Below the pieces are notes generated by a model that saw nothing but the letters and a program-made list of their open reading frames with translations, was not told the origin of the DNA and did not search any database. Of a stretch of 64,000 nucleotides of DNA, positions 9,370 to 54,393 are shown piece by piece. Each line of letters begins with the position of its first letter. The stretch's first letter is position 1. Both the position numbers and the translations under genes were made by a program. Origin of the DNA: an uncultured Gammaproteobacteria bacterium. Its GTDB lineage: Bacteria > Patescibacteriota > Microgenomatia > Levybacterales > GWA1-39-11. The DNA lies in the NCBI GenBank assembly GCA_964511965.1, contig CAZEGF010000022.1, positions 12,101 through 76,100 of the forward strand. Direction: 5' to 3'.

Positions 9370-10482
9370 ATGCTGGTTACAGTTCTTGCTTTCATAATAA
9401 TCCTTTCCGTTCTTGTTATCGTCCACGAATTAGGTCATTTCTTTGTTGCCAAAAAATTAGGAATTAAGGTAGAAGAATTCGGAGTTGGGTTCCCACCGAG
9501 AGCTTTCAGTCGCAAAATAGGTGAGACCGTATATTCCATTAACTGGCTTCCTGTAGGAGGGTTTGTGAAATTGTATGGTGAAGATGCAGCAGGAGGGGGT
9601 TCGGTAAGAAGCAAGCAGCAAGAAGCAAGTAGCAAGGGTGTGGATGAGGTGGAGCGGGCATATTATGCAAGACCGCTGTGGCAAAGAATGGCAGTTGTTA
9701 CTGCTGGGGTTATCATGAATGTAATTTTGGCAATTGTTGTTATCTCATTTCTCTTTGCGACACAAGGAGTTCCACTACCTACGGACAACATTATTGTCAC
9801 TGAAGTTGCGCCTAATTCACCTGCTGCAATTGCCGGCATTTTAAAAAATGACAGAATATTAAAAATTGATGGTAAGCAAATAAAAACAACAGAATTATTT
9901 ATTTCACAAACCAAAAAACTCCGCGGACAAGAAGTGACTCTTATTGTAAAAAGAGGAGACAGCGAATTTACGACAAAGTTAACTCCACGGTTAAATGCTC
10001 CGAAAAATCAGGGTGCGATGGGGGTTGCAATATCCAACATCGAAGTTAAAAAATATTCCTGGTTTGAAGCGCCCATTTTTGGGACAATTGAGGCTGCAAA
10101 ATTTTCGTGGATGATAGCAAGTGGGCTTGGCACGATGATAGTTGATTTTGTTTTGCATGGGACAAAACCACAAGGAGTAGCAGGTCCTATTGGTGTTGCG
10201 CAGCTAACTGGTGAAGCAGTAAGAGCAGGGTGGTTTGCAGTATTGTGGTTCATGGCTCTTCTTTCCCTAAATTTAGCCGTTCTTAATATCTTACCTATTC
10301 CAGCCCTTGACGGAGGTCGTTTTTTCTTTATGATAATCGAAATGCTTACTGGCAAAAAAGTAAGTCCAAAATACGAAGCATATGCTCATGGTGTTGGGCT
10401 CGTTCTCCTACTTGGTCTTATGGCGGTCGTGACATTACTTGATATAGTTAGACTTCTGCAGGGGAAAAGCATAATACCCTAA
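9370..10482 (+). CDS. rseP: RIP (site-2) zinc metalloprotease RseP
   Basis: HELGHF motif, PDZ region and the LNLAVLNILPIPALDGG motif. An in-frame insertion SKQQEASSKG is encoded by the AGCAAG hexamer repeat at 9606-9634. Confidence 0.9.
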   Translation: MLVTVLAFIIILSVLVIVHELGHFFVAKKLGIKVEEFGVGFPPRAFSRKIGETVYSINWLPVGGFVKLYGEDAAGGGSVRSKQQEASSKGVDEVERAYYARPLWQRMAVVTAGVIMNVILAIVVISFLFATQGVPLPTDNIIVTEVAPNSPAAIAGILKNDRILKIDGKQIKTTELFISQTKKLRGQEVTLIVKRGDSEFTTKLTPRLNAPKNQGAMGVAISNIEVKKYSWFEAPIFGTIEAAKFSWMIASGLGTMIVDFVLHGTKPQGVAGPIGVAQLTGEAVRAGWFAVLWFMALLSLNLAVLNILPIPALDGGRFFFMIIEMLTGKKVSPKYEAYAHGVGLVLLLGLMAVVTLLDIVRLLQGKSIIP

Positions 10483-11804: not shown

Positions 11805-13415
11805 CTAACTTTGGCCATCTGTTCCGGTCGGGGCAAGTGGAGATGCTCCTGGAAAAGCAATGACGTTAGATGGAGCTTCACCTGCAGTTGCTTGAGTACC
11901 TCCAAGTGAATCCAGTCCTGTTGCTGGTGCTGATTCGGAAACTGATTGTTGCGCTTCACCTGGGAAAGCGAGTACGTTATTTACTTCTTTTGAATTTGGA
12001 ACAATTTCCAGCTTTGGAGTTTGTGGTAGACCTGCAGCGAGTGGGCTTGAGCCATCAACCATCCCTGGTCCAGTAGCAGAAGCATTTGGATCTGTTGGTG
12101 ACATACCACCGGGAACTGCAGTTACCGGAGCGGTTGGATCAACATCAGTGTTAGCAGTAGCTACAGCGGCATCAGCGACTTCACCGGTTGTAGCTGGTTC
12201 TGATCCGGTTTCAATTGGGATATCGTGGCCAACTTCTTCACTACTGTTTAATGCTTCAGTGGTAAAAGGTGGTTTGTCTGCTGCAGCAGCAGCACCATCT
12301 GCCATTGCTTTTCCTAATGCATCTCCATCAACTGCAGCATCTCCACTAACAACAGGGGCATCAGGATGTGATGCAGTCCCATCGACTGACCAATCAGGAG
12401 GAGCTTGCATTCCATCAGCGACAGCTCCCGGACCAGCATGAACAGCTTCATCATTTGCATCAGCGGATTGAATTGGTGCTTCAGGTTCTTCAACGTGAGT
12501 TTCTGCAACTGGTTCTACCGCTGGAACAGAGGCAACAGGAGTAGTTGTGACATCAGCAACAGATTCGACTGGAGTAGTGGTCGGAGCATCAGGAAGTGTG
12601 CTTTCCTCTTGCGCAGGTTCAGCAGTTGCGCTAGGTGTAAATTCTGCAGGCTTGTCTTCAGTAGTTACTTGGGCAACAGGTTCTGCAATTGATTCTTCTG
12701 CTTCAGCCATAGGTTCAACGGGTGGCTGAGGTACAACTTCCGGTTGAGATGTTCCAAGACTTGGTGCATCTGATGCAACAACTTCTGCTGGAGCAGGTGA
12801 AGATGCGACCACTCCGCCATTTTCTGGACTTGAAATAGAATTTTGGAATGGAACACCAGTCGCAACACCGGCAGCTGTTGCATCAGGTGTTGAGAGTCCA
12901 GCGTAATTATTCTCAGGTGTTGTTGCAGTGGGTGCTTCAAACTTTGGAGCAGAGGCACCATCTGCCGTCGCTCCATTAAGGTTTGCTACATCTGGAGTTT
13001 GAAGTGTCCCATTGCCTGTTGGTATCAAATGATCAGGTGGGGTCGCAACAGCTGCAACTTCTGGCTTTTTACTTTTAAGACCCATTCCTTCCAGTGCTCC
13101 ACCAATAACTTTTCCAAACAAACCTCGTCTTTGTTCGGTCACTGGTGGTTGGTTTTGAACATCTTTCTTCTCTTCAACCATTGCGTTGTGGGTTGCTATT
13201 ATTTCAGGTGTTTGAGGTGTACCAACAGGTTCAAGTCCTGTTAAGACAGCCGGATGTTCTCCTGTTGCCTCCATATCTTGAGTAAGAGTAGTCGATTGTG
13301 CATTCGGATCAGAAGGAGCAGCAACAGACGCTTCGGCAGCAGAACTTGGGGGTACTACACCGTCAACTGGTTGAACACTAGAATTAATATTAGGGGATTC
13401 CGGTTGAATATCCAT
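11805..13415 (-). CDS. Acidic low-complexity (Pro/Ala/Thr/Val/Glu-rich) protein, probably intrinsically disordered
   Basis: 536-aa ORF with no TM segment and a locally higher-GC, strongly biased composition. Internal repeat NV(L/I)AFPG. No recognisable domain. Confidence 0.45.
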   Translation of the reverse strand: MDIQPESPNINSSVQPVDGVVPPSSAAEASVAAPSDPNAQSTTLTQDMEATGEHPAVLTGLEPVGTPQTPEIIATHNAMVEEKKDVQNQPPVTEQRRGLFGKVIGGALEGMGLKSKKPEVAAVATPPDHLIPTGNGTLQTPDVANLNGATADGASAPKFEAPTATTPENNYAGLSTPDATAAGVATGVPFQNSISSPENGGVVASSPAPAEVVASDAPSLGTSQPEVVPQPPVEPMAEAEESIAEPVAQVTTEDKPAEFTPSATAEPAQEESTLPDAPTTTPVESVADVTTTPVASVPAVEPVAETHVEEPEAPIQSADANDEAVHAGPGAVADGMQAPPDWSVDGTASHPDAPVVSGDAAVDGDALGKAMADGAAAAADKPPFTTEALNSSEEVGHDIPIETGSEPATTGEVADAAVATANTDVDPTAPVTAVPGGMSPTDPNASATGPGMVDGSSPLAAGLPQTPKLEIVPNSKEVNNVLAFPGEAQQSVSESAPATGLDSLGGTQATAGEAPSNVIAFPGASPLAPTGTDGQS

Positions 13416-21056: not shown

Positions 21057-21106
21057 ATTTGAGATTGAAATTTTTTGGTAGTAACTCTACAATAATAATT
21101 GACACT

Positions 21107-21287
21107 TTAAATCAAGAGGAGGAGTAGAGTATTGGCTCGTTGATCCCTCCAGCAACCTTTCGGCAATCTCAAGGTAAACCCAGAGATCTGAAAAGGTGCT
21201 ACACCCAACCCTATTAAGGGAAGGATTAGCTTCGATTAAATCGGAGAATAAATAAAAACCTCTCTTTTAGGGAGGTTTTTTTGTGCC
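21107..21287 (+). ncRNA. Candidate small RNA or leader: promoter-like TTGACA-17-TAGAGT, about 140-nt hairpin-forming transcript, intrinsic terminator (cctctcttttagggagg + T7)
   Basis: Seen in sequence: -35/-10-like boxes at 21101-21132 and a terminator hairpin plus T-run at 21258-21287. Contains GGTGCT...GGGAAGGA reminiscent of SRP RNA, but not convincingly so. Confidence 0.25.
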
Positions 21288-28974: not shown

Positions 28975-29235
28975 CCTCAAAACCACTCGGAATCCCACTT
29001 TTTGTCAAGAGCAAATAATCTTTAAATTGGTATAAAAATATGCTATACTACATGTTCGGTTTTAGGCCCATAGTGTGATTTATCACGCGAACGTGTTAGG
29101 AGTTTAAATCACTCTTACTACGTATAGTCTACGTTTTGCATGTAGACTTTTTTGGTCCAAAAACCCAAGCACTTTGAAAATTTGGTTTCGTATTTTTTAA
29201 TTTCATCCCGCACTTGATGCGGGATCTAATAAGTA

Positions 29236-29361
29236 CTTGATCGTGGACAAGCGGATTTCATCCGCAACTTAAAACTTAAAACTTAAAGCCTCAAAAAATT
29301 ATTTTTGTTTTGAAGTTTGTAGTTTTTTATTTGTAGTTGCTACCGCCTGCCCACGATCAAG
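29236..29361. repeat. Imperfect 19-bp inverted repeat (cttgatcgtggacaagcgg / ccgcctgcccacgatcaag) flanking an AT-rich word spacer at the left edge of GC island 1
   Basis: Arms at 29236-29254 and 29343-29361 are reverse complements with 2 mismatches. Confidence 0.7.
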
Positions 29362-29397
29362 ATTTCCATATTTGTCTTGTCTGGGAGGAGGTTCGTA

Positions 29398-29586
29398 TTG
29401 ACGAACAAGATATTAGAAAGAGTCGCAAGGCTCATTGGCAAACGCGCCCACGAAGTTGGGCATGCTGCCGTTGAGTTCGGACATATTACGGTCCACGACA
29501 TCGAACGCGCGGCTGCACGCCGCAAGCCCAGGGAAAAAGCTGACAAAGCTCATCCCGCCATCGTCAACGACAAGTCCGTCAATTAG
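29398..29586 (+). CDS. Small protein P1 (about 62 aa) with a HEVGH...E..GH motif, in the GC-rich island
   Basis: Strong SD GGAGGAGG 6 nt upstream of the TTG at 29398. The track ORF 29377..29586 is in the same frame. The multi-frame ORFs of GC-rich DNA make this uncertain. Confidence 0.35.
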   Translation: MTNKILERVARLIGKRAHEVGHAAVEFGHITVHDIERAAARRKPREKADKAHPAIVNDKSVN

Positions 29587-29618
29587 GCGGGCGCCAAGTC
29601 CTACCCAGGAGAGTATAC

Positions 29619-29861
29619 ATGTCTCACGCAAATAGGCGAGGAATCGCAGGATTCCCCCGCCGACCGAAGACCAAACCGGCAAGCTACGGTAACACGCGTA
29701 TGATGCCTATCGTCAGGACTCCTGGCGAATTGGCGGCGCTCATGACCGAGCTTCCGGAACACGAAGCCCTTAATCGGGCCTGTATTTCGATCGAGGCTGT
29801 TTACGGACTCGGTGAGCCCGTACTCTTTCGGCCTCTCGACAGCATGTACTACCACCGCTAA
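29619..29861 (+). CDS. Small protein P2 (80 aa), GC-rich island
   Basis: RBS ggagagtatacATG. Same strand and operon layout with ppsA. Confidence 0.35.
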   Translation: MSHANRRGIAGFPRRPKTKPASYGNTRMMPIVRTPGELAALMTELPEHEALNRACISIEAVYGLGEPVLFRPLDSMYYHR

Positions 29862-29882
29862 CAGCGGCGCGAAGAAAGAAAC

Positions 29883-30086
29883 ATGTCAGACCACCATCGA
29901 AGGACGAGGCGTCAGCACTACGCTGACGAATCAAACCGAGATTCGTGGGAATTTGCCAAAGCCTTTCGTCAAGCCCGTTATTTCATAAAGACGGGTCAAC
30001 TCGGGCGAGGTCAAGCTCTCATCCAACCATTCCGCGGCATACGCCGTGGTTCCATGGAACAAATCCAAAACGAGGAGAACACTTAG
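29883..30086 (+). CDS. Small basic protein P3 (67 aa), GC-rich island
   Basis: ORF ends 1 nt before the ppsA start. Its last codons provide the GAGGAG SD for ppsA. Confidence 0.35.
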   Translation: MSDHHRRTRRQHYADESNRDSWEFAKAFRQARYFIKTGQLGRGQALIQPFRGIRRGSMEQIQNEENT

Positions 30087-32405
30087 TTGGGCAAGACAGC
30101 AGTAATCGAAAGCGAACTTTCTCAGAAGACCATCTACTGGTTTTCGGAGGTAAGTCGCGATGACCTGGGAGTCGTCGGAGGGAAGGGCGCCAACCTTGGC
30201 GAACTGACCAAAGCCGGCATTCCGGTCCCACCAGGGTTCGTCGTTTCGGCGGACACATATTTTCGCTTCATCCAGATGAACAGCCTCGAGTCGCTCATCA
30301 AGAAGGAGCTTTTCGGCCTCGATGTCCACGACAGCAGGGTGCTCGATGAGCGCGCGGCCAACATTCGGCAGCGCTTCATGGATGCTCCCATGCCGCGGTC
30401 TATCGCATCGGAAATCATGGACGCGTACCGCGAACTGGGCGAAGGCCCTGTTGCGGTCCGGTCGTCGGCAACAGCCGAAGACCTGCCCGAAGCATCTTTT
30501 GCCGGTCAACAGTCGACGTACCTTAACGTCGTCGGCCCAGAGAACGTTGTTCTCGCCGTCCAGGCGTGCTGGGCATCCCTCTTTGAGGGACGCGCCATCT
30601 TCTACCGGGAAGAAGCAGGATACGACCACATGAAGGTCGGACTTGCCGTCCCGGTCCAACGGATGGTGCAAAGCGAGATCTCAGGCGTCATGTTCACGGT
30701 CGAACCCGTGACGAGCGACCCTAAGAAGATCACAATCGAGGCTGTTTACGGTCTCGGAGAAGGGATTGTTTCGGGTGAGATCAGCCCGGATCTGTACATG
30801 ATCGACAAGCAGTCTCTTCAAATCACTGATCAGACCGTCACTCCACAGCCCAAAATGATTGCAAGGGCGCCGGAGTCAGACGGAAGCCATGAGGGAGCTA
30901 ACTCGTGGCAAGACGTTCCCGAGCATCTGCAGGAAAAGCAAAAGCTCACGGACAATGAGATCCACGAACTTGCCGCTATCGGCAAGGCCGTGGAAGAATA
31001 CTACGGAAGTCATCAAGACATCGAATGGGCCTATGAGGGCGGTAAGTTCTACCTCACTCAAGCACGCCCGGTGACGACCATGACTGAAGAACAACACGCT
31101 GATGTAACGGAACACGAAGAGGAGATCGCACCGGTCATCCTCAAAGGTCAGCCGGCTAGCCCTGGAGTAGGGCACGGACCGGTCCGTATCATCACCGATC
31201 CGAAAGACATCGACCAGGTCATGCAAGGCGACGTTCTAGTTGCTGAGATGACTACTCCGGATTTCGTTCCGGCGATGAAACGAGCTTCGGCCATCATTAC
31301 CGAACGCGGTGGAAGGACCTGCCACGCGGCCATTGTGTCACGCGAGCTGGGGATTCCCTGCGTCGTCGGAGTCAAAGGTGCTACCCAAGAGCTAAAGCCA
31401 GACCAGCAGGTTTCGGTTGACGGCTCGCAAGGTCTCATCTACAACGGTGAGGCGAAAACACGCCTGGCATGGGATCAGAGGCGGAGAAAACAACTCCTCC
31501 GAAAGTCCACAATAAAGACCACTACCAGACTCTACGTCAACCTCGCCGAGCCTGAGCTAGCCGAAGTCGTTGCTATGCGCAACGTCGACGGCGTCGGTCT
31601 TTTGCGCGCCGAATTCATCGTCGCGCAAATCAACCAGCACCCGAAGAAATACGTCGAGGACGGACAGGGTGCTGAGTACACACGGCTTCTTGCGGAAGGT
31701 ATCCGTAAGTTCTGCGAAGCCTTCAAGGGTCGTCCAGTCGTTTACCGACTGACCGACTTCAAGACGAACGAGTACGCCAACCTTCGGGGAGGCGCCAAGT
31801 TCGAGGCTACCGAAGAAAACCCGATGATCGGATTCCGCGGGGCATCCCGTTATATCCAGGACACGGAAGTCTTCATGCTAGAAGTCGAGGCGATCAAGCA
31901 AGTCCGCGAGGAATTCAAGAACCTGTACGTCATGGTTCCCTTCGTCCGGACTGAAGCTGAGCTGAAAGGCGTCAAGAATCTCCTGGCCGAGCAAGGTTTG
32001 GTCAGGGGAGTGGACGACTTCAAGCTCTGGATGATGGTGGAAGTTCCCTCCAACGTTATCATCCTCGACCGCTTCATCGACGTTGGTATCGATGGGATCT
32101 CCATCGGCTCCAACGACTTGACCCAGCTGGTTCTGGGCATCGATCGCGACAGTGAGGCTCTCGCCGATACCTTCGACGAGCGCAACGAAGCTGTCATGGC
32201 CGCCATCGAAACTGCGGTCACAGTCGCACGGCGTCGTGGTATTACCGCGAGCATCTGCGGCCAGGCACCCTCCGTTTACCCGGAGGTTACCGAAAAGCTG
32301 GTGGAGTGGGGGATCACCTCCGTCTCCGTTAGTCCTGACATGATCGAGCAGACACGCGAGATCATCCACAACGCCGAGGTCAAGCTCGGCCGCGCTCCCC
32401 AGTAG
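30087..32405 (+). CDS. ppsA: Phosphoenolpyruvate synthase / pyruvate, water dikinase (PEP-utilising enzyme)
   Basis: N-terminal PPDK_N motif (GGKGANLGEL...GIPVPPGFVVSADTY), phosphohistidine domain (GGRTCHAAIVSRELGIPCVVG) and a C-terminal PEP-utilising TIM barrel. TTG start with GAGGAG SD. The region is clearly GC-rich. Confidence 0.85.
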   Translation: MGKTAVIESELSQKTIYWFSEVSRDDLGVVGGKGANLGELTKAGIPVPPGFVVSADTYFRFIQMNSLESLIKKELFGLDVHDSRVLDERAANIRQRFMDAPMPRSIASEIMDAYRELGEGPVAVRSSATAEDLPEASFAGQQSTYLNVVGPENVVLAVQACWASLFEGRAIFYREEAGYDHMKVGLAVPVQRMVQSEISGVMFTVEPVTSDPKKITIEAVYGLGEGIVSGEISPDLYMIDKQSLQITDQTVTPQPKMIARAPESDGSHEGANSWQDVPEHLQEKQKLTDNEIHELAAIGKAVEEYYGSHQDIEWAYEGGKFYLTQARPVTTMTEEQHADVTEHEEEIAPVILKGQPASPGVGHGPVRIITDPKDIDQVMQGDVLVAEMTTPDFVPAMKRASAIITERGGRTCHAAIVSRELGIPCVVGVKGATQELKPDQQVSVDGSQGLIYNGEAKTRLAWDQRRRKQLLRKSTIKTTTRLYVNLAEPELAEVVAMRNVDGVGLLRAEFIVAQINQHPKKYVEDGQGAEYTRLLAEGIRKFCEAFKGRPVVYRLTDFKTNEYANLRGGAKFEATEENPMIGFRGASRYIQDTEVFMLEVEAIKQVREEFKNLYVMVPFVRTEAELKGVKNLLAEQGLVRGVDDFKLWMMVEVPSNVIILDRFIDVGIDGISIGSNDLTQLVLGIDRDSEALADTFDERNEAVMAAIETAVTVARRRGITASICGQAPSVYPEVTEKLVEWGITSVSVSPDMIEQTREIIHNAEVKLGRAPQ

Positions 32406-32524
32406 GAGCCATAACGTGAGCGTATACACGTTTATACGAAGCCAGATTAGACCGACCGCGAGGTCGGAAATTCCGCCGGACTTATGTCCGGCACCCCCTC
32501 CGCGTATAGCGGGCAACCCAACCT

Positions 32525-32562
32525 GGGTTCCCATCGCTTGCGCGGAGGGAACCCTTTAAAAA
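32525..32562 (+). terminator. Hairpin gggttccc...gggaaccc followed by TTTAAAAAAA at the right edge of GC island 1
   Basis: Perfect 8-bp stem. The T-run is short, so this is a weak intrinsic terminator. Confidence 0.35.
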
Positions 32563-32823
32563 AATTCACCAATTCCTAATCACTAATTACTACTCCAAAG
32601 GAGCAAGCTTTGCTTATTCACTAGTCACTATTTTGCGGGTTGACTTCAGTTTTTTTTAAAGCCTACAATTAAATAAGAAGAAAGTAGCAAGAAGCAAGTA
32701 GAAAGGGAAAATATGTTCTCTTAATACTTTATTCTTTATTCTTTATTCTCCCAAAATGTATTAGCTTTTGGACCGACTGGGACTAAAGCCAAGGAATGCA
32801 ACATTTAAAATATATAACGAAGC

Positions 32824-34068
32824 ATGTATTACTTCAGCGAGCTTATTAATAAAAAAGTAGTCAATGAAAACGGTAAGTCATTGGGTAAGCTTAAAGACTT
32901 CCTTTTTCTTGCTGAAGAATCTCCAAAAATCACAAAATTATTTGTAAAAAAAAGCCCCAGACGAAGTTATGCAATTCTTATAAAAGAGATAAAAACAATT
33001 GACGATAGAATAGTTGTTAATAAAGATTTTGTTGAAAAAGATATTGCAGAGCGGGAGTTTTCAATTGCCCACAATTTACTAAATAGGCAAATAATTGATG
33101 TTAAGGGCGGAAAGGTAGTTAGGATAAATGATATTGCGATTCAAGATAAGCAGTCGGTACCAACCGGTACTGTAACAGACGGCAATCAAGAGTATTATAT
33201 TGCAGGAGTAGACGTTGGATTTCGAGCAATTCTGCGGTGGTTTAAGTTGGAAAAGCCAACAGTTCCCCTCTATAAATTTTTCAAAATATATTCTCATCCA
33301 CACTTTCTATCATGGGGAGATATTGAACCACTAGAGTTGGCTCGTGGTAACGTGCAATTGAAAAAAGATATCGGAGACCTTGAACGGATGCGCCCTGAAG
33401 ATCTGGCTGATTACCTTGAGAAGACGAATATTAGAAATGTTAATAAAATTATTACCGGTCTTGATGATGAATATGCGGCCGATGTTATCGAGGATCTTAA
33501 TATTAATTATCAGACGGCTCTATTTAAAAGATTTGCACCCGAGCAAGCAACCCGTCTTATTGACTTTCTTGAACCAGATGAAGCAGTTGATATTCTTTTG
33601 ACTCTTCCACGGGAGAAAAGGAACGAAATCCTAGATAGTCTACCAAAAGGTAAAGGAGAAGAGCTTCGGGAGCTTATGAAGTATTCCAAAACTTCTGTTG
33701 GAAAGCTGCTAAATCCAGAATTTATAACAGTTAGTTCTGAAGCAACCGGATCTCAAGCGTTAGGTGTCGTAAAAGAAAAACTACCCGAATCTCCATTTTC
33801 TTCCTATATATATGCACTCAATCAGGAAGGTCATCTGGTCGGAGTTGTTGAATTATCTGATTTGTTGTTGCATGAAGGGGATGAGCAGGTTTTTAAATTT
33901 ATGGAGCAAGATGTTGTTGTCGCACATTTAACTACACCTCAAGAAATAGCACTTAAAAGGATGCTCAAATATAAATTATATGCACTCCCTGTAATTGAAG
34001 ACAATCAAAAAATGATAGGAGTAGTGACCTTTGATGACATGATAGAGGATGTAGTGGATAAGCTATAG
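32824..34068 (+). CDS. PRC-barrel + MgtE-N + tandem CBS domain protein with no membrane domain
   Basis: MgtE N-domain-like (DLADYLEKTNIRNVNKIITGLDDEYAADVIEDL...EAVDILLTLPREKRNEILDSLP) followed by a CBS pair. No TM helices. Confidence 0.65.
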   Translation: MYYFSELINKKVVNENGKSLGKLKDFLFLAEESPKITKLFVKKSPRRSYAILIKEIKTIDDRIVVNKDFVEKDIAEREFSIAHNLLNRQIIDVKGGKVVRINDIAIQDKQSVPTGTVTDGNQEYYIAGVDVGFRAILRWFKLEKPTVPLYKFFKIYSHPHFLSWGDIEPLELARGNVQLKKDIGDLERMRPEDLADYLEKTNIRNVNKIITGLDDEYAADVIEDLNINYQTALFKRFAPEQATRLIDFLEPDEAVDILLTLPREKRNEILDSLPKGKGEELRELMKYSKTSVGKLLNPEFITVSSEATGSQALGVVKEKLPESPFSSYIYALNQEGHLVGVVELSDLLLHEGDEQVFKFMEQDVVVAHLTTPQEIALKRMLKYKLYALPVIEDNQKMIGVVTFDDMIEDVVDKL

Positions 34069-34093
34069 GAGAATAAAGTGGTGAGAATAAAGT

Positions 34094-35389
34094 ATGAAGG
34101 AAATACTTTATACTTACTTCTTGATTCTTAATTCTAAAAATAATATGAGGAAATTGTGGAGACAGTTACGAATTAAGCTTCTTATTATTATGGCGGTCAT
34201 GGGGCCAGGACTTATTACTGCTTTTGCAGATAACGATGCCGGTGGTGTAGCTACCTATTCGGTTGCTGCAAGTAAGTTCGGTTACTCAATGTTAACGACC
34301 CTTATACCAATTACTGTAGTTCTTATGATTACACAAGAAATTGGAAGTAGGCTTGCAGTTGTGACAGGAAAAGGACTTGGTGATCTAATACGGGAAAAAT
34401 TTGGAATCCGAGTTAGTGTTCTTATTTTTACAATTTTATTCTTTGTTAATTTCGGCGTTATCATCCAGGATCTTGGTGGACTGAAAGATAGTCTTTCGCT
34501 TTTTCACCTAAATTTATGGATTTTTATGCCCATTGTGATAGCTTTTCTATTCCTTCTTATTACAAAAGCATCATATGCAAAGGTCGAAAAGTTTTTCCTC
34601 TTTCTTATATTTTTCTACCTCTCGTATGTGATAAGCGCAGTATTGGCAAAACCTGACTGGGCGTTAGTTGGAAAATCATTAGTAATTCCTCATGGAAAAA
34701 TTTCATTTGGATATTTGTATACCGCTGTTGCTGTTCTTGGAACTACCGTTACTGCATGGGGACAATTTTTTATAAATAGTTATGTAAAAGACAAGAAATT
34801 AACCGTAGACCGTCTCAAATACAACCAAGCAGAAATTTATTTTGGAGCATTTCTGACTGACATCATAACACTTTTTATGATGGTTGCAGTTGCCGCAACA
34901 ATATTTATCCATAACATACAAATTTCAGGTGCGGCTGATGCTGCTTTGGCTATCAAGCCATTCGCAGGGGATCTAGCCGGTGTGATGTTTGGGGCAGGAC
35001 TTTTGATCGCTGGATTTATCGGGGCAGCAATTGTGCCGTTAGCAACGGCATATGCTTTTTCTGAATTTTTCGGGTATGAGGGAAGCCTTGATGTCAGTTT
35101 TAGTAAAAGCCGTCTTTTTTACGGATTTTTTATTGGGCAAATCCTTCTGGGACTTTTAGTTATCAGTTTTCCAAATTTCTCGCTTTTCAAAATTACTTTG
35201 TATGCTGATTTTATTAATGGTATTTTCCTGCCCGTTATCTTTTTCTTCTTATATAAATTTGTGAATGACAAAGAACTTATGGGTAAATATAAAAATACGA
35301 AATTCCAAAATATAATGCTTGTAGGATCGGGTCTTGCAATAACAATTGCCGCTCTCGTCGGTGGTATCGGATCGCTTTTAGGGAAATAG
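34094..35389 (+). CDS. NRAMP-family divalent metal transporter (MntH-like)
   Basis: MAVMGPGLITAFADNDAGGVATYSVAASKFGY matches the NRAMP GPG...DxGN signature. About 11 TM helices. Confidence 0.65.
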   Translation: MKEILYTYFLILNSKNNMRKLWRQLRIKLLIIMAVMGPGLITAFADNDAGGVATYSVAASKFGYSMLTTLIPITVVLMITQEIGSRLAVVTGKGLGDLIREKFGIRVSVLIFTILFFVNFGVIIQDLGGLKDSLSLFHLNLWIFMPIVIAFLFLLITKASYAKVEKFFLFLIFFYLSYVISAVLAKPDWALVGKSLVIPHGKISFGYLYTAVAVLGTTVTAWGQFFINSYVKDKKLTVDRLKYNQAEIYFGAFLTDIITLFMMVAVAATIFIHNIQISGAADAALAIKPFAGDLAGVMFGAGLLIAGFIGAAIVPLATAYAFSEFFGYEGSLDVSFSKSRLFYGFFIGQILLGLLVISFPNFSLFKITLYADFINGIFLPVIFFFLYKFVNDKELMGKYKNTKFQNIMLVGSGLAITIAALVGGIGSLLGK

Positions 35390-48879: not shown

Positions 48880-48940
48880 CTTTAAACGTTAAACTTAAAA
48901 CCTCAAACTGAAATTTTGTTGTGGGAAATTATATAGAAGG

Positions 48941-49930
48941 GACCCTGCTGTTTCCGCAGCAGGGTCCCAGAGAAGCGGGAGCCCGGAGGCTCCTGGTCAA
49001 TCACAGTCCGCCGTAATTCGCGCGTGCTTATCGCAGCGATGGCAGACCAGAGATGATCCTCATCATTTGCATGTCCCCATAGCGGGGAAGGTGGGCTCTA
49101 GCCCCACCTTCCCCTAGGGAAGGAACGCATAACGGTCAAGGAGAACCAAAAAACCGTCAGCGGAATCCTTTTGGGTGGGACGGGCCGACATGGGGAGGTA
49201 TGTCTACCCGTCCCGTGGAATGAGGGAGGAGTCCACATTCCGTGAAACCGCTTGGTCAGGGCGGCTTCCTCGATCAGCGGCTTATATGCCGCGGGAAAAC
49301 CGGGAAGGGCTGGACAACGAAGTCCAGCCCAATTCCGGCCGGAGACAGAAGAGGTCGAGTTTTCTGCTCCTAAGATCTTGTTCCCGAACCTGCGGGCGGG
49401 CGGATTCGCAGAGAAACAAGATCCTCTCGACCAGCGGCTTATATGCCGCGGGAAAACCGGGAAGGGCTGGACAACGAAGTCCAGCCCAATTCCGGCCGGG
49501 GATAAATCCCCTAGGGTTATCTGGTGGAGACCTAGGTGGGTAAACGGGGTGAAATGGGTTTGTCTCCTGGCCAGCGTTACCCTTCTTTATCCAGTTTCCG
49601 TACATAGGTCGGATCAGGACGGGGGTAATGCCCCCGTCCATCACCGTTATCAAGAGCTAAGGTTTTTGCGTTACCGCCTATTGGCGGCTTCGATAATGGC
49701 GGTCAGACCCTTGCGGTGTCTGCCAAATTCTTGGGCTAAAAAGCCCTGGATATAACCACAGGCGGTCCCTTGTTGGGACCATAGCTATAAGCCAGTATCA
49801 CCATGTCAAACCTCTCCAGTTTGAATTTGCTACACCCGACTAGCGGGTGGAACATGCAAATGTATGTAAAAGAGCGCCCGCAATGCGGGCAATGCCCTTT
49901 ACGGTAGAGTGAATTATAGGTCAACAGTAG
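48941..49930 (+). ncRNA. Candidate large structured non-coding RNA or RNA-like element (GC-rich, hairpin-dense, contains a 69-bp tandem-like repeat). Strand assignment tentative.
   Basis: Many perfect hairpins: gggaccctgctg/cagcagggtccc, gggaaggtgggc/gccccaccttcccc, ggacggggg/cccccgtcc, gggctggac/gtccagccc x2. No convincing ORF with an RBS. The frame-overlapping track ORFs here are GC artefacts. Confidence 0.35.
49264..49500. repeat. Two near-identical 69-bp direct repeats (cagcggcttatatgccgcgggaaaaccgggaagggctggacaacgaagtccagcccaattccggccgg) about 95 bp apart
   Basis: Copies at about 49264-49332 and 49432-49500. Each folds into two hairpins (gcggc/gccgc and gggctggac/gtccagccc). Confidence 0.9.
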
Positions 49931-50379: not shown

Positions 50380-50462
50380 GTTTAGAATAAAGGAGTAGGA
50401 ATAAAGAATAAAGGAACTTGCTTAATACTTAATTCTTAATACTTAATTCTAATTTTCAAAGT

Positions 50463-50849: not shown

Positions 50850-50955
50850 AGTGAATTAAGGGTTAAGAATAAAGTATTAAGGGTTTACACCTGAATTTAT
50901 TTCGAATATACTGCTTTTGCTTAATACTTACTTCTTGATTCTTTATTCTTAAGTT

Positions 50956-52437: not shown

Positions 52438-52448
52438 AAAACAAAAAA

Positions 52449-52473
52449 GGCCACCTCCTGGGTGGAGGTGGCC
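52449..52473. terminator. Bidirectional hairpin ggccacctcc-tggg-tggaggtggcc, flanked by an A-run upstream and a T-run on the minus strand
   Basis: Perfect 10-bp stem. On the minus strand it is followed by TTTTTTGTTTTTT, so it is a strong terminator for the minus-strand small-ORF unit and probably also for dnaX. Confidence 0.7.
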
Positions 52474-52515
52474 TGATTTGCACAGTGAACTCTGGGAGTT
52501 GGAAGGCCCTGCCTT

Positions 52516-52809
52516 TTATGAAGTGCCCGACTGGGCGTTTCGCAGATCGTGTTCGTACTGGATTGCGTTGAACATGCACTTGCAGTACATGCCGTCCATG
52601 TAGCCACTGCCGAGGCAGAGACAATTCTGGCTGGGTCTGTCATGCAGCGTTCCGGTGTAGACACCACGAAGCTCGGTTTCTGTCTTGTTGGCCGGCCGAG
52701 CCTCAGGGGTGCGGATCCTACGCTCCGCCGACAGCCTGAGATCCCATACCGAAGGTTGTGGTGCTTGTAGAACCGGAGCCTTACCATTGCTGGTAGGTGT
52801 TCTTGCCAT
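52516..52809 (-). CDS. Small Cys-rich protein (97 aa; ...SQNCLCLGSGYMDGMYCKC...) in GC island 3
   Basis: RBS gaaagggtgag-N7-ATG. Shares a [DE]x2-4NC[LW][CL] motif with ORFs at 53712 and 53946. Frame choice in GC-rich DNA is uncertain. Confidence 0.35.
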   Translation of the reverse strand: MARTPTSNGKAPVLQAPQPSVWDLRLSAERRIRTPEARPANKTETELRGVYTGTLHDRPSQNCLCLGSGYMDGMYCKCMFNAIQYEHDLRNAQSGTS

Positions 52810-53002
52810 CTTGTTGGCTCACCCTTTCTGTTCCGTAAGGAACTGTTGCTTCAGAGGATCCGAAGCAATTGCTATCCTTTTGCAGGATCGGCCCCGTCTC
52901 TCGACGGGGCTTCTCCCCGGCATTTCCCTTGCCTGACTTGACTGCGCTCGGTGGTAGTTACCTCCTTTTCGTCATTTTTAACGCCCTTGGGGACGATGAC
53001 GT

Positions 53003-53149
53003 CTAGTGGATCTGAGTTACCAGAATGGCTATTGCAACTGCGAATGCAGAGCATACCATCAAGGCAGAGTAGGCTGTTTGTTTCCGATATGCTGCCTGGC
53101 GGGCAGCCTTGGAGTGAGGCGGCGGGGGTGGCCCCTTTTTCCTGAACAA
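53003..53149 (-). CDS. Possible 48-aa proline-rich small membrane peptide (MFRKKGPPPPPHSK...AFAVAIAILVTQIH)
   Basis: Strong SD AAGGAGAGG 8 nt upstream of the TTG. C-terminal TM helix. Preceded on the minus strand by an AT-rich promoter-like tract. Confidence 0.3.
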   Translation of the reverse strand: MFRKKGPPPPPHSKAARQAAYRKQTAYSALMVCSAFAVAIAILVTQIH

Positions 53150-53359
53150 GACTGTACCTCTCCTTGTGTCGTATTCGACAACCAACATGCAATTCTCAAA
53201 TAAATTGTAAATTGGTTGTCGACTACGACTTCTCCCAAAATTTCAAAGTGCAAATAAATACATTTAGCACAATTTCTTTACAAGCAAAAAAAGTAAAGAA
53301 TTATCCTATTTGTGGCTAGATTATAGCATATAGTAGTTTTAAATGAGGATATGGCAAAA

Positions 53360-53380
53360 GGCCGTCCGTGGAGGACGGCC
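53360..53380 (-). terminator. Intrinsic terminator (ggccgtcc-gtggag-gacggcc + TTTTG on minus strand) ending the A-B-C small-ORF operon
   Basis: Perfect 7-bp GC stem followed by a U-tract on the minus strand, about 20 nt after the stop of ORF 53400..53684. Confidence 0.55.
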
Positions 53381-53399
53381 CAAAATTGCACGGTGATAT

Positions 53400-53684
53400 T
53401 TATGGATGTTCATTCTTCTCGATGTAAAGTTGGACAAGCCTTATCCACTCTGGCTTGATGGTCGGCCAATTTTGCCGCACATACGGGTGCGGAAAGTTGT
53501 TGTAGAGCCAAGCCTCGAGCGTGCCAGTCGAGAAAGTGCGCTTCGGTCCACCTGGTGGCTTGCGAAACCTCCGTTCGAGAGGTAAACCATTTGGATAGGA
53601 AATTGCCACCGACCAGTAGTCTTGGTTGACGGTTGGAGAACGCATCTCCAGAGAAAGTCCAGCCGTGAGATGTAGACTGATCAT
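53400..53684 (-). CDS. Small protein C (94 aa), GC island 3
   Basis: GGAG 9 nt upstream of the ATG. The alternative overlapping frame (53410..53697) lacks an RBS. Confidence 0.3.
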   Translation of the reverse strand: MISLHLTAGLSLEMRSPTVNQDYWSVAISYPNGLPLERRFRKPPGGPKRTFSTGTLEAWLYNNFPHPYVRQNWPTIKPEWIRLVQLYIEKNEHP

Positions 53685-53711
53685 TATCCATCTCCATAGG
53701 GAAACTTGGTG

Positions 53712-53930
53712 CTAGCGCGTTGGGATGTGAAGTGATTTCCTGATCTCATCTTGCGTCATATAGACACACAGGCAGTTCATGGGTTCGCCTTCGTCGGTGG
53801 TGTCGGGCTTGACGCCGCGATCGCACTTGAGAACGCAGTCGGGGCTGAACGGGTACTTGTGAGGCCCGCGGCCCGCTTGTAGCAGTTGTTCCCGAGCTTC
53901 GGAATAGTGAGAATCCTCATTGTATTCCAT
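53712..53930 (-). CDS. Small Cys-rich protein B (72 aa; CVLKCD...NCLCVY)
   Basis: RBS GGAAGAG 8 nt upstream of the ATG, and tight spacing after ORF A. Confidence 0.4.
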   Translation of the reverse strand: MEYNEDSHYSEAREQLLQAGRGPHKYPFSPDCVLKCDRGVKPDTTDEGEPMNCLCVYMTQDEIRKSLHIPTR

Positions 53931-53945
53931 CAGATGTGCTCCTTC

Positions 53946-54191
53946 CTAACAGTCATGGTACCCATACAGATCGTAAGAAACGATGGGTCGTGGTTTTGGA
54001 ATGATTTCAAGCAGCCAGCAATTTTCATGTTGAGCCGCTTGGTTGAATTCGTCTTCGCACGAAGGAACGTGCCCTTGCTCAAAGTACGAATTGTGTTCTG
54101 GATCAAGGCAGAGCCTCGATTTGACGTGTTGACCGCAGAGTGTGCAGTCTCGAGGTGCGCCGTTGACTTTTACGCCTATGAGTTGAGTCAT
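53946..54191 (-). CDS. Small Cys-rich protein A (81 aa; CTLCGQH...C...C...NCWL)
   Basis: Strong SD tcAGGAGGgaaaATG. First gene of the minus-strand trio. Confidence 0.45.
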   Translation of the reverse strand: MTQLIGVKVNGAPRDCTLCGQHVKSRLCLDPEHNSYFEQGHVPSCEDEFNQAAQHENCWLLEIIPKPRPIVSYDLYGYHDC

Positions 54192-54393
54192 TTTCCCTCC
54201 TGACTACCGCTTCAGGCAAAGAATTGCCCAAGGCGGTAGCCAAAAAGGAATCCATAAATTTCAAAGTGCTGAAAATCATGATGAGAACGCCATAGTAGAG
54301 CGCATCTACTAATTAATTCTCAAATTTAGAACGATTATACATCGAAACAGATTGTAAAACGATAATTTGTAGCCTATAATTCATTTTTGCACT

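Follow-up and report, generated by a model that had tools for sequence, protein, structure and literature searches.

The 64,000-nucleotide stretch of contig CAZEGF010000022.1 analyzed here (from now on the window) contains a GC-rich block (positions 29,349-32,560; 55-62% GC versus ~37% for the genome), which harbors three small open reading frames (ORFs), P1, P2 and P3, and a complete phosphoenolpyruvate (PEP) synthase gene, ppsA. We propose, and regard as likely, that the block is a dikinase operon of Levybacteria in which a ppsA of Tepidiformaceae-like origin has replaced the coding sequence of the enzyme in situ, the leader and the untranslated regions (UTRs) being kept. Since the resident control regions and the three small genes would have been retained, this amounts to a gene swap at a fixed slot and not to the arrival of a new four-gene island.

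The host belongs to the candidate phyla radiation (CPR, Patescibacteria), as indicated by YchF, which in the window is 82% identical to proteins named Candidatus Levybacteria (NCBI; best named matches). Many host ORFs are without a Pfam family. An earlier description of the same DNA (from here on the initial annotation) had spoken of a reduced-genome organism, and a CPR bacterium of the Levybacteria fits this.

In steps of 1 kb the GC content is 0.565 and 0.559 at 30-32 kb versus 0.34-0.41 nearby, and in steps of 200 nt it rises at 29,300-29,500 and falls at 32,500-32,700. The sole outlier in GC at third codon positions (GC3) among the 59 ORFs of the window is ppsA (0.68 versus 0.20-0.43); the GC3 of the leader ORFs P1-P3 is 0.52-0.62, and both UTRs are GC-rich as well. 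Thus the GC-rich block within a low-GC genome was found as the initial annotation had described it, and so were the four co-directional genes with Shine-Dalgarno (SD) sequences, one stop codon abutting the next start. An ORF on the minus strand (11805-13415, 536 amino acids (aa), no Pfam family) has 48% GC and a GC3 of only 0.20; in contrast to ppsA it is GC-rich via its amino acid composition and not via codon choice.

The dikinase slot of Levybacteria

Contigs of relatives, whose loci are given L numbers, were retrieved with the flanking Nramp and FAD-oxidase proteins, by way of their close homologues. The gene order HxlR, CDF transporter, slot, MgtE_N/CBS, Nramp, GH15, FAD oxidase is found in L084, L085, L088, L094 and L097, and from the CDF gene onward in L101. 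The slot is occupied by pyruvate,phosphate dikinase (PPDK) in L084/86, L085/87, L094-96, L097/99 and L101, by a PEP synthase in L088 that is 51% identical to that of the window and ~51% identical to all Chloroflexi PpsA, and by a Tepidiformaceae-like PpsA in the window and in L083. The two PPDK occupants tested on model TIGR01828, those of L084 and L085, score 1306 and 1318 bits, respectively (cut-off 843). Between the window and L088 the flanking proteins are 97-99% identical and the PpsA proteins 51%; between the window and the genomes with PPDK the flanking proteins are 91-96% identical and the enzymes 23-25%. The identity of the CDF protein to that of the relatives is 74-98%. No empty site was found among the relatives that retain the order CDF-MgtE_N; in each of them a PPDK or a PpsA, GC-rich in either case, fills the slot. 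In the literature on Levybacteria and CPR with PPDK and horizontal gene transfer we found no published description of the locus.

High GC is common to the slot in all relatives, whose occupants have 57-60% GC and a GC3 of 0.68-0.73 as compared with 0.27-0.38 in the flanks. The PPDK alleles of the slot diverge by up to 22% in amino acids, yet their GC3 is ~0.68-0.71 throughout. Since the whole slot is GC-rich in each relative examined, high GC alone is no evidence of recent import. The persistent GC-richness might be due to gene conversion with a bias toward GC at a hot spot of recombination, to selection acting on the structure of the mRNA or to introgression from a CPR lineage of higher GC.

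In L089 (5900-6450) the slot is rearranged or deleted: a 3' fragment of ppsA (homologous to 32074-32198 of the window) is followed by the trailer and lies beside the genes for thymidylate kinase and ArgRS. Between the trailer and MgtE_N, L088 (7818-8540), L084 (8243-8455), L094 (8353-8595) and L097 (6726-7262) contain an 80-aa orphan ORF and DUF2795; DUF6496 is also present in this segment in L088 and L089, and the whole segment is missing from the window and L083.

Origin of the ppsA coding sequence

The gene ppsA (30087..32405, + strand) encodes a protein of 772 aa with the domain order ATP-grasp PPDK_N (PF01326, residues 29-345, 4.5e-106), mobile phospho-His domain PEP-utilizers (PF00391, residues 380-449, 2e-30) and PEP-binding TIM barrel PEP-utilizers_C (PF02896, residues 473-764, 5.2e-66). 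The protein lies above both PEP-synthase equivalog cut-offs (NF005057, 942.3 bits, cut-off 598; TIGR01418, 903.3 bits, cut-off 739.75), its residues 12-767 covering the PEP-synthase models end to end, and it fails the PPDK model TIGR01828 (182 bits versus a cut-off of 843). With its three domains and both cut-offs passed, the last gene of the block is the PEP synthase (pyruvate, water dikinase) for which it had been taken from the beginning. The translation contains ERGGRTCHAAIVSRELG and GISIGSNDLTQ, which represent the catalytic histidine motif GGxTxHAAI and the C-terminal signature SxGxNDLxQ, respectively. Between the window and L083 ppsA differs in 10 amino acids, with a ratio of nonsynonymous to synonymous polymorphism (pN/pS) of 0.08, which shows strong purifying selection and makes it probable that the gene is functional in its present host. 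The same pair was uninformative as to the direction of amelioration (22 versus 25 sites).

That PpsA had been acquired from elsewhere, as proposed in the initial annotation together with a protein search for the donor lineage, was borne out by such a search. The nearest matches are the protein's own 99% cluster, after which identity drops to 81%, with nothing between 81% and 99%; the matches from 81% down to 73% are all from Tepidiformaceae, Tepidiforma or Dehalococcoidia (scans with one genome per species). The identity to the Tepidiformaceae proteins of ~80%, seen in metagenomes as well as in genomes, extends over residues 14-772 and is uniform along the protein. A rough neighbor-joining tree, without support values and without broad taxon sampling, places PpsA within the Dehalococcoidia, as the basal branch of the Tepidiformaceae-type cluster. 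Both matches and tree thus point to a foreign, Tepidiformaceae-like origin within the Chloroflexota.

At the nucleotide level homology to Chloroflexi genomes is confined to 30137-32405, which is coding sequence. At 80 Chloroflexi ppsA loci there is no counterpart of the 740-nt leader or of the 155-nt trailer and no homologue of P1 or P3. The block of four genes had first been viewed as one acquisition; the limits of homology leave only the ppsA coding sequence as foreign, and the leader with P1-P3, the inverted repeat and the 3' hairpins, which had been counted with it, are resident in Levybacteria.

The two ends of the coding sequence show how closely the foreign piece was fitted. Native Tepidiformaceae PpsA begins ~5 residues before the conserved VWFSEV, and PpsA of the window has 13 extra residues there. 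Its opening codons TTG GGC AAG ACA GCA GTA align with TTG ACT CAG ACA GTA GTA, the resident opening in L088, with which the enzymes of L093 and L094 have only the first three codons (TTG ACT CAG) in common. The junction of P3 and enzyme, ...ACNTAGTTG, is conserved and precedes the enzyme start in the window, L088, L093 and L094. Codons ~1-9 of the gene are therefore counted as resident, and the sequence from residue 14 (nt 30126) to the stop codon as Tepidiformaceae-like. At the C-terminus the window has KLGRAPQ* versus KLGRAPK* in Tepidiformaceae, and beyond the stop codon there is no further homology to Chloroflexi. The limits of homology at both ends indicate that the foreign piece is essentially coding sequence, set in frame into the resident translation-initiation context.

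Two other explanations of the block as a whole were considered. A chimera of the assembly, with a fragment from Chloroflexi wrongly attached to a contig of a CPR bacterium, had been named in the initial annotation as the alternative to an acquisition; the compositional contrast was the sole evidence for it, to which may be added that the short contig L002 begins exactly at 29345, inside an arm of the inverted repeat. The window is identical to the European Nucleotide Archive contig ERZ27282891 k141_2890628 (117 kb). Against a chimera, the exact PpsA protein is present on 9 contigs, of which 8, from different assemblies, have the same neighbors; L002, assembled with SPAdes from another sample, is 100% identical over 29345-32858 and thus crosses the right border; and L083 (JGI 3300028804), a 97-98% identical strain, spans both. 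By this comparison of contigs both junctions have independent support. Since the same architecture is found in seven further lineages and the ppsA frame is fused to resident leader codons, the chance of a faulty join is next to nil. For the recent insertion of a foreign operon P1-P2-P3-ppsA into a formerly empty site, as an island bordered by the inverted repeat and the GC hairpin, speak the sharp GC boundaries, the GC3 of 0.68 versus ~0.3 in the flanks, the GC-richness of all four ORFs and the inverted repeat at the left edge. However, no empty site was found in relatives with the order CDF-MgtE_N (rearranged L089 has only the 3' fragment of ppsA), the leader, inverted repeat and trailer are common to the PPDK-type genomes, and the Chloroflexi ppsA loci are without P1-P3 and without both UTRs. 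There is, in addition, no tRNA in the window, no integrase or transposase among the neighbors and no direct repeat at the borders. We hold an island to be highly improbable.

Leader ORFs and structured UTRs

The three leader ORFs lie on the + strand: P1 (29398..29586, 62 aa) has a TTG start and the SD sequence GGGAGGAGG at 29383-29391; P2 (29619..29861, 80 aa) has an ATG start with GGAGAG upstream; and P3 (29883..30086, 67 aa) has an ATG start and ends with TAG (30084-30086), which directly abuts the TTG start of ppsA at 30087, GAGGAG being located 9 nt upstream of this TTG. P1-P3 and their variants have no match in Pfam, NCBIfam or the PDB, in agreement with the initial annotation, which had recognized no family. 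A full HMMER search with P2 among 1.84 billion representatives found one 50%-identity cluster (a 76-aa protein with 71% identity and the length of the L088-type P2), and a metagenome scan with the P1 alignment found only L083 again and one new locus, L093. By these two results the three ORFs are orphans restricted to the clade.

The composition of the leader varies among the relatives: P1-P2-P3-PpsA in L088, P1-P2'-P3-PPDK in L093 (P2' having only the N-terminus in common with P2), P1-PPDK in L084, L085 and L101, and P1, an unrelated basic 53-aa ORF and PPDK in L094. In L083 P2 is missing; the alignment jumps from 29612 to 29882, the indel segment (29613..29881, + strand) having CATGTC at both ends (29618-29623 and 29882-29887). 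P1 homologues directly follow the inverted repeat, ahead of PPDK or PpsA alike, and are of a 62-aa type (window, L083, L094) or a 50-aa type (L084, L085, L088, L093, L101); in L097 P1 is unrecognizable. The ratio of nonsynonymous to synonymous substitution rates (dN/dS) for P1 is 0.1-0.4 within a type and ~0.8-1.0 between types. The sequence HEVGH...E..GH, to which attention had been drawn early on, is present in P1 and is not conserved in its homologues (HDVGH in L094, HDVSH in L088, HNVDH in L084); HEVGH itself is limited to the window and L083, and a zinc metalloprotease motif HExxH is not conserved among the P1 homologues. P2 has an orthologue of 76 aa in L088 (dN/dS 0.37, p = 6e-4), and P3 has orthologues in L083, L088 and L093, in the latter upstream of PPDK (dN/dS 0.25-0.31). 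For P2 and P3 the synonymous excess is significant (p = 1e-4 to 1e-3), i.e., both evolve like coding sequence, under purifying selection. The recurrence of P1-P3 upstream of the enzyme in other genomes, which the initial annotation had proposed to look for, was thus found in related Levybacteria. As P1-P3 also precede PPDK, they are not PpsA-specific; they are probably real, or at least translated.

The AF2 model of P3 is a helical hairpin (predicted local distance difference test score, pLDDT, 86-92 over residues 21-50), that of P2 is of low confidence (pLDDT 52). P2 holds ISIEAVYGLGEPV (compare PpsA 215-228) and MPIVRTPGELAAL (compare PpsA 616-636) in non-colinear order, both of which are kept in P2 of L088. 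A hidden Markov model (HMM) of the PpsA family scores 6.2 bits on the P2 frame, whereas none of 300 dinucleotide shuffles exceeds 1.4; P1 and P3 resemble PpsA no better than their shuffles do. At the nucleotide level 29790-29815 matches 30735-30760 within ppsA (26 nt, 92%). One may speculate from these matches that P2 is the exapted scar of an earlier ppsA.

An observation on the RNA concerns P1. Around its stop codon (29565-29600) a hairpin GYCCGYC-AAYUAG-GYGGGC can be drawn by eye; the window, L084, L088 and L093 all have it, and the changes between them are compatible with G.U pairs. It could account at the RNA level for the conserved C-terminus VNDKxxN* of P1.

What P1-P3 are can be explained in two other ways. 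The initial annotation had suggested them as dedicated partners or regulators of PpsA in place of the kinase PSRP/DUF299; P2 might, for example, mimic segments of PpsA and P3 bind the enzyme. In favor of this, P2 and P3 are conserved under purifying selection beside PpsA in two lineages, the two PpsA-like motifs of P2 exceed chance expectation, the predicted structure of P3 is a helical hairpin, and no signature motif of DUF299/PSRP turned up when the window was translated in six frames (a search by regular expression only, which is a weak test and did not include the rest of the genome). Against it, P1 alone precedes PPDK in L084, L085 and L101, and P1-P2'-P3 precede it in L093; P2 is deleted in L083, whose ppsA stays under strong purifying selection; P2' of L093 shares only its N-terminus with P2, and L094 has its unrelated basic ORF at this place; and no homologues of P1-P3 are found outside the clade. 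We therefore consider dedicated partners unlikely. Alternatively, the upstream 740 nt might be decayed coding debris, from an earlier copy of ppsA or from donor DNA, and P1-P3 spurious ORFs. In GC-rich DNA long ORFs do arise at random on both strands, P1-P3 are all absent from the gene calls of the source contig, the ppsA-derived motifs of P2 are non-colinear, and there is the 26-nt match to ppsA. Yet the three frames stay open, with ribosome binding sites and in-frame indels, across ~30% nucleotide divergence (L088, L093), the synonymous excess is significant, and P1 and P3 resemble PpsA no more than shuffled sequences do, which makes debris quite improbable. In its narrower form, the leader as a decayed ppsA pseudogene, the explanation was rejected because only P2 matches the PpsA HMM above shuffles and the three frames are conserved.

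Upstream of P1 the proposed dikinase operon begins with a candidate sigma-70-like promoter read from the sequence (29174..29203, + strand; TTGAAA, 17-18 nt, TTAATT/TAATTT), within a block GCACTTTGAAAATTTGGTTTCGTATTT that is conserved in L083, L084, L085, L088 and L101. It is followed by a short GC hairpin ATCCCGCA-CTTGA-TGCGGGAT (29205..29225, + strand), also found in L085, L088, L094 and L101, with which the presumed 5' UTR starts, and by a long imperfect hairpin (29236..29361, + strand) consisting of the inverted-repeat arms 29236-29254 and 29343-29361 and a variable AT-rich spacer. The arms pair at 17 of 19 positions, just as the 19-bp imperfect inverted repeat around an AT-rich spacer had been described for the left border, and 29236-29361 is a 70% palindrome (self-inverted over 128 nt). 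The RNA 29205-29400 folds with -60.2 kcal/mol (z = -5.8). The core of the arms, CTTGATCGTGG / CCACGATCAAG, is common to all relatives, which have at least four unrelated spacers of ~27-100 nt, and the right arm together with the SD sequence, CCCACGATCAAGATTTCC(T)ATA(T)TTGTCTTGTCTGGGA(A)GGAG, is nearly invariant among them. The window aligns with relatives across the inverted-repeat region to 29390, and the leader aligns with L084 over 29491-29608 and with L088 over 29558-30104. Because the arms are conserved while the spacer varies, we regard the inverted repeat as a conserved stem or operator upstream of the operon and not as an insertion scar or border, as had been supposed. A 19-mer from the inverted-repeat arm and an 18-mer from the trailer are both absent from viral contigs.

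An invertible promoter segment between the arms was also considered and rejected, since the alternative spacers are unrelated and not reverse complements of each other; so were borders of a miniature inverted-repeat transposable element or an island, since the left border has no repeat in common with the right one. The spacers are of the same style as the AT-rich word repeats (e.g., AAGAAGAAAGTAGCAAGAAGCAAGTAGAAAGG) in intergenic regions of the host at 32674-32751, 34068-34137, 50384-50452, 50917-50952 and 9605-9638. Between the CDF gene and the operon a further element is located at 29021-29155, whose start ACATGTTCGGTTTTAG is conserved in L084, L085, L088 and L101. It has a promoter-like site (TTTAAA, 17 nt, TATACT with TG) and, ~75 nt after this site, a terminator-like hairpin (29126-29148) with T6, and could represent a small RNA or else an attenuator.

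Behind ppsA follows a GC-rich structured 3' trailer (32406..32565, + strand) with a conserved core (32434-32557) and a terminator-like hairpin (32525-32554) with TTT. The RNA 32406-32575 folds with -72.6 kcal/mol (z = -7.1). In every relative the trailer is conserved (72-84% of nucleotides, 32434-32574), be it behind PPDK or PpsA; its helix 1 is invariant and its helix 2 has 3 covarying pairs. The GC hairpin at the right border, seen already in the initial annotation, is formed by GGGTTCCC (32525-32532) and GGGAACCC (32547-32554). The terminal stem GGGUUCCC...GGGAACCC is conserved, after which there are only UUU and A-rich sequence, and a scan with a terminator consensus gave no call; a conserved long-range pairing CCCUCCGC/GCGGAGGG in the trailer competes with the terminal hairpin GGGUUCCC/GGGAACCC. 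A search of the operon including 5' UTR and trailer against Rfam, with a permissive E-value, yielded only chance-level microRNAs and small nucleolar RNAs (E 0.3-0.6), far below gathering scores.

Elsewhere in the window there are two further GC-rich stretches, both without ORFs. The one at 48880-49870, after a gene of the HIT family, has 55-60% GC, many perfect GC hairpins and a direct repeat of 77 nt (97%; 49269-49345 and 49426-49502); it folds with -446 kcal/mol versus -351.5 +/- 6.7 for shuffles (z = -14), has no Rfam match at E <= 0.1 and no Pfam match in its reading frames, and is perhaps a large structured RNA not yet described or an array of hairpin repeats. The other, at 52440-54390 between dnaX and a polyprenyl synthase gene (~2 kb, 50-60% GC), folds with z = -6.3 for 52440-53200 and -3.1 for 53380-54300 and has no Rfam or Pfam match. 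The only Rfam family in the window is an S-adenosylmethionine (S-box) riboswitch at 21106-21231 (46.3 bits, just over the gathering score).

Proposed operation of the locus and related systems

We propose that the resident slot, between the gene of the CDF metal transporter and the gene pair MgtE_N/CBS-Nramp, is built in the order promoter region, structured 5' UTR with the inverted repeat closing it, leader ORFs (one to three), enzyme and structured trailer. In most relatives the enzyme is PPDK; in the lineage of the window a PEP synthase gene of Chloroflexota (Dehalococcoidia) origin would have been put in its place, grafted in frame after the resident first ~9-13 codons and ending at its own stop codon. 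One mRNA would start near 29,205, the transcript boundary suggested by the candidate promoter. The inverted-repeat stem and the trailer hairpins may protect or process the transcript, the trailer stabilizing or terminating it. P1, P2 and P3 would each be translated from their own SD sequence. Having terminated at the TAG of P3, ribosomes would start again at the TTG of ppsA, a weak start that adjoins this TAG and has its SD sequence in the last codons of P3. From this arrangement the translation of ppsA is probably coupled to that of P3 via TAG-TTG, and with termination and re-initiation at this site the output of enzyme would depend on translation of the leader. PpsA is predicted to interconvert pyruvate + ATP and PEP + AMP + Pi, presumably taking the role that PPDK has in the relatives.

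Several points weigh against replacement in situ in this lineage. The slot is a mosaic, in which P1 of the window is nearest to L094, P2 and P3 are nearest to L088 and the spacer is nearest to L084; the graft of ppsA may therefore predate its arrival, having been made in another Levybacterium and then transferred by homologous recombination. The block of CDF and PPDK is more diverged than the right flank. The assigned origin is based on best matches and on a tree without support values, and since identity is only 80% the true donor is unsampled or the transfer not recent. The homology of the first ~9 codons is based on a short stretch. The P1 peptide is poorly constrained between types and unrecognizable in L097, and P2 is dispensable in L083. 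The promoter call of the operon model is weak, the candidate block having failed a strict consensus scan. Finally, all slot occupants, the clade-restricted leader ORFs and the UTRs are GC-rich, so that high GC alone does not speak for recent import.

A more far-reaching proposal would make the locus a recombination-prone dikinase slot of Levybacteria, in which a non-mutational force, such as biased gene conversion where recombination is frequent or selection on RNA structure, keeps the expression cassette GC-rich, P1-P3 and the UTRs form an undescribed post-transcriptional control module accepting PPDK and PpsA from other phyla, and P2 is an exapted ppsA fragment that mimics PpsA. We consider this doubtful and mention it as a conjecture.

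CPR bacteria have a minimal central metabolism, in which the PEP/pyruvate step is a key energy-conserving reaction. With the replacement proposed here, one lineage would have exchanged the coding sequence of PPDK for that of a PEP synthase of the Chloroflexi type and retained its own regulatory shell, which would make the locus a clean and datable case of inter-phylum gene displacement in a CPR genome and may point to partner or neighbor organisms as sources of DNA. It is also a warning against reading recent import from high GC alone in an AT-rich genome. The three conserved micro-ORFs and the two structured UTRs are candidates for translational control in organisms whose gene regulation is barely known.

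The PPDK of Levybacteria (TIGR01828) has the slot, the inverted repeat, P1, the SD regions and the 3' trailer in common with PpsA of the window, belongs to the same superfamily and acts at the same pyruvate/PEP node; it differs in sequence (23-25% identity) and in using PPi/Pi instead of water. PpsA from Tepidiforma and Tepidiformaceae is like that of the window in the three-domain architecture, the TCH phospho-histidine motif and the C-terminal KLGRAP, and differs in its GC3 (0.76-0.90 versus 0.68), in having no common genomic flanks and in being without the 13-residue N-terminal extension of Levybacteria origin. As in the pair of PSRP (DUF299, YdiA) and PpsA/PPDK, the target threonine two residues before the catalytic histidine (GGRTCHAAIV) is intact in PpsA of the window; unlike in this pair, P1-P3 have no similarity to the regulator, and the neighbors of ppsA belong to other families.

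With the translationally coupled leader ORFs of bacterial operons the window shares the short ORFs with their own SD sequences before the enzyme and the last stop codon abutting a weak TTG, whose SD sequence sits in the upstream ORF. In contrast to classical attenuation leaders there are three ORFs, they are longer (50-96 aa), and neither a run of regulatory codons nor a terminator/antiterminator pair was identified upstream of the enzyme.

The concept of xenologous or non-orthologous gene displacement in situ within a conserved operon was reportedly put forward by Omelchenko et al. in 2003 (Genome Biol 4:R55) and is widely cited. By the features that distinguish such a displacement, the synteny of the flanks at the dikinase slot is conserved, the occupant is far more divergent than the flanks, and it groups with a distant lineage. 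Here, too, the flanks and the regulatory context are kept and the central gene is replaced by a distant homologue or functional analogue. Unlike in the usual case the replacement is limited to the coding sequence, fused in frame after resident codons, one and the same slot was filled anew at least twice, and the occupants, the leader and the trailer are GC-rich in an AT-rich CPR genome. The event is thus of a known kind, gene displacement in situ; what is unusual about it is the refilled slot, the graft precise to the coding sequence, the leader micro-ORFs, the structured UTRs and the GC-richness.

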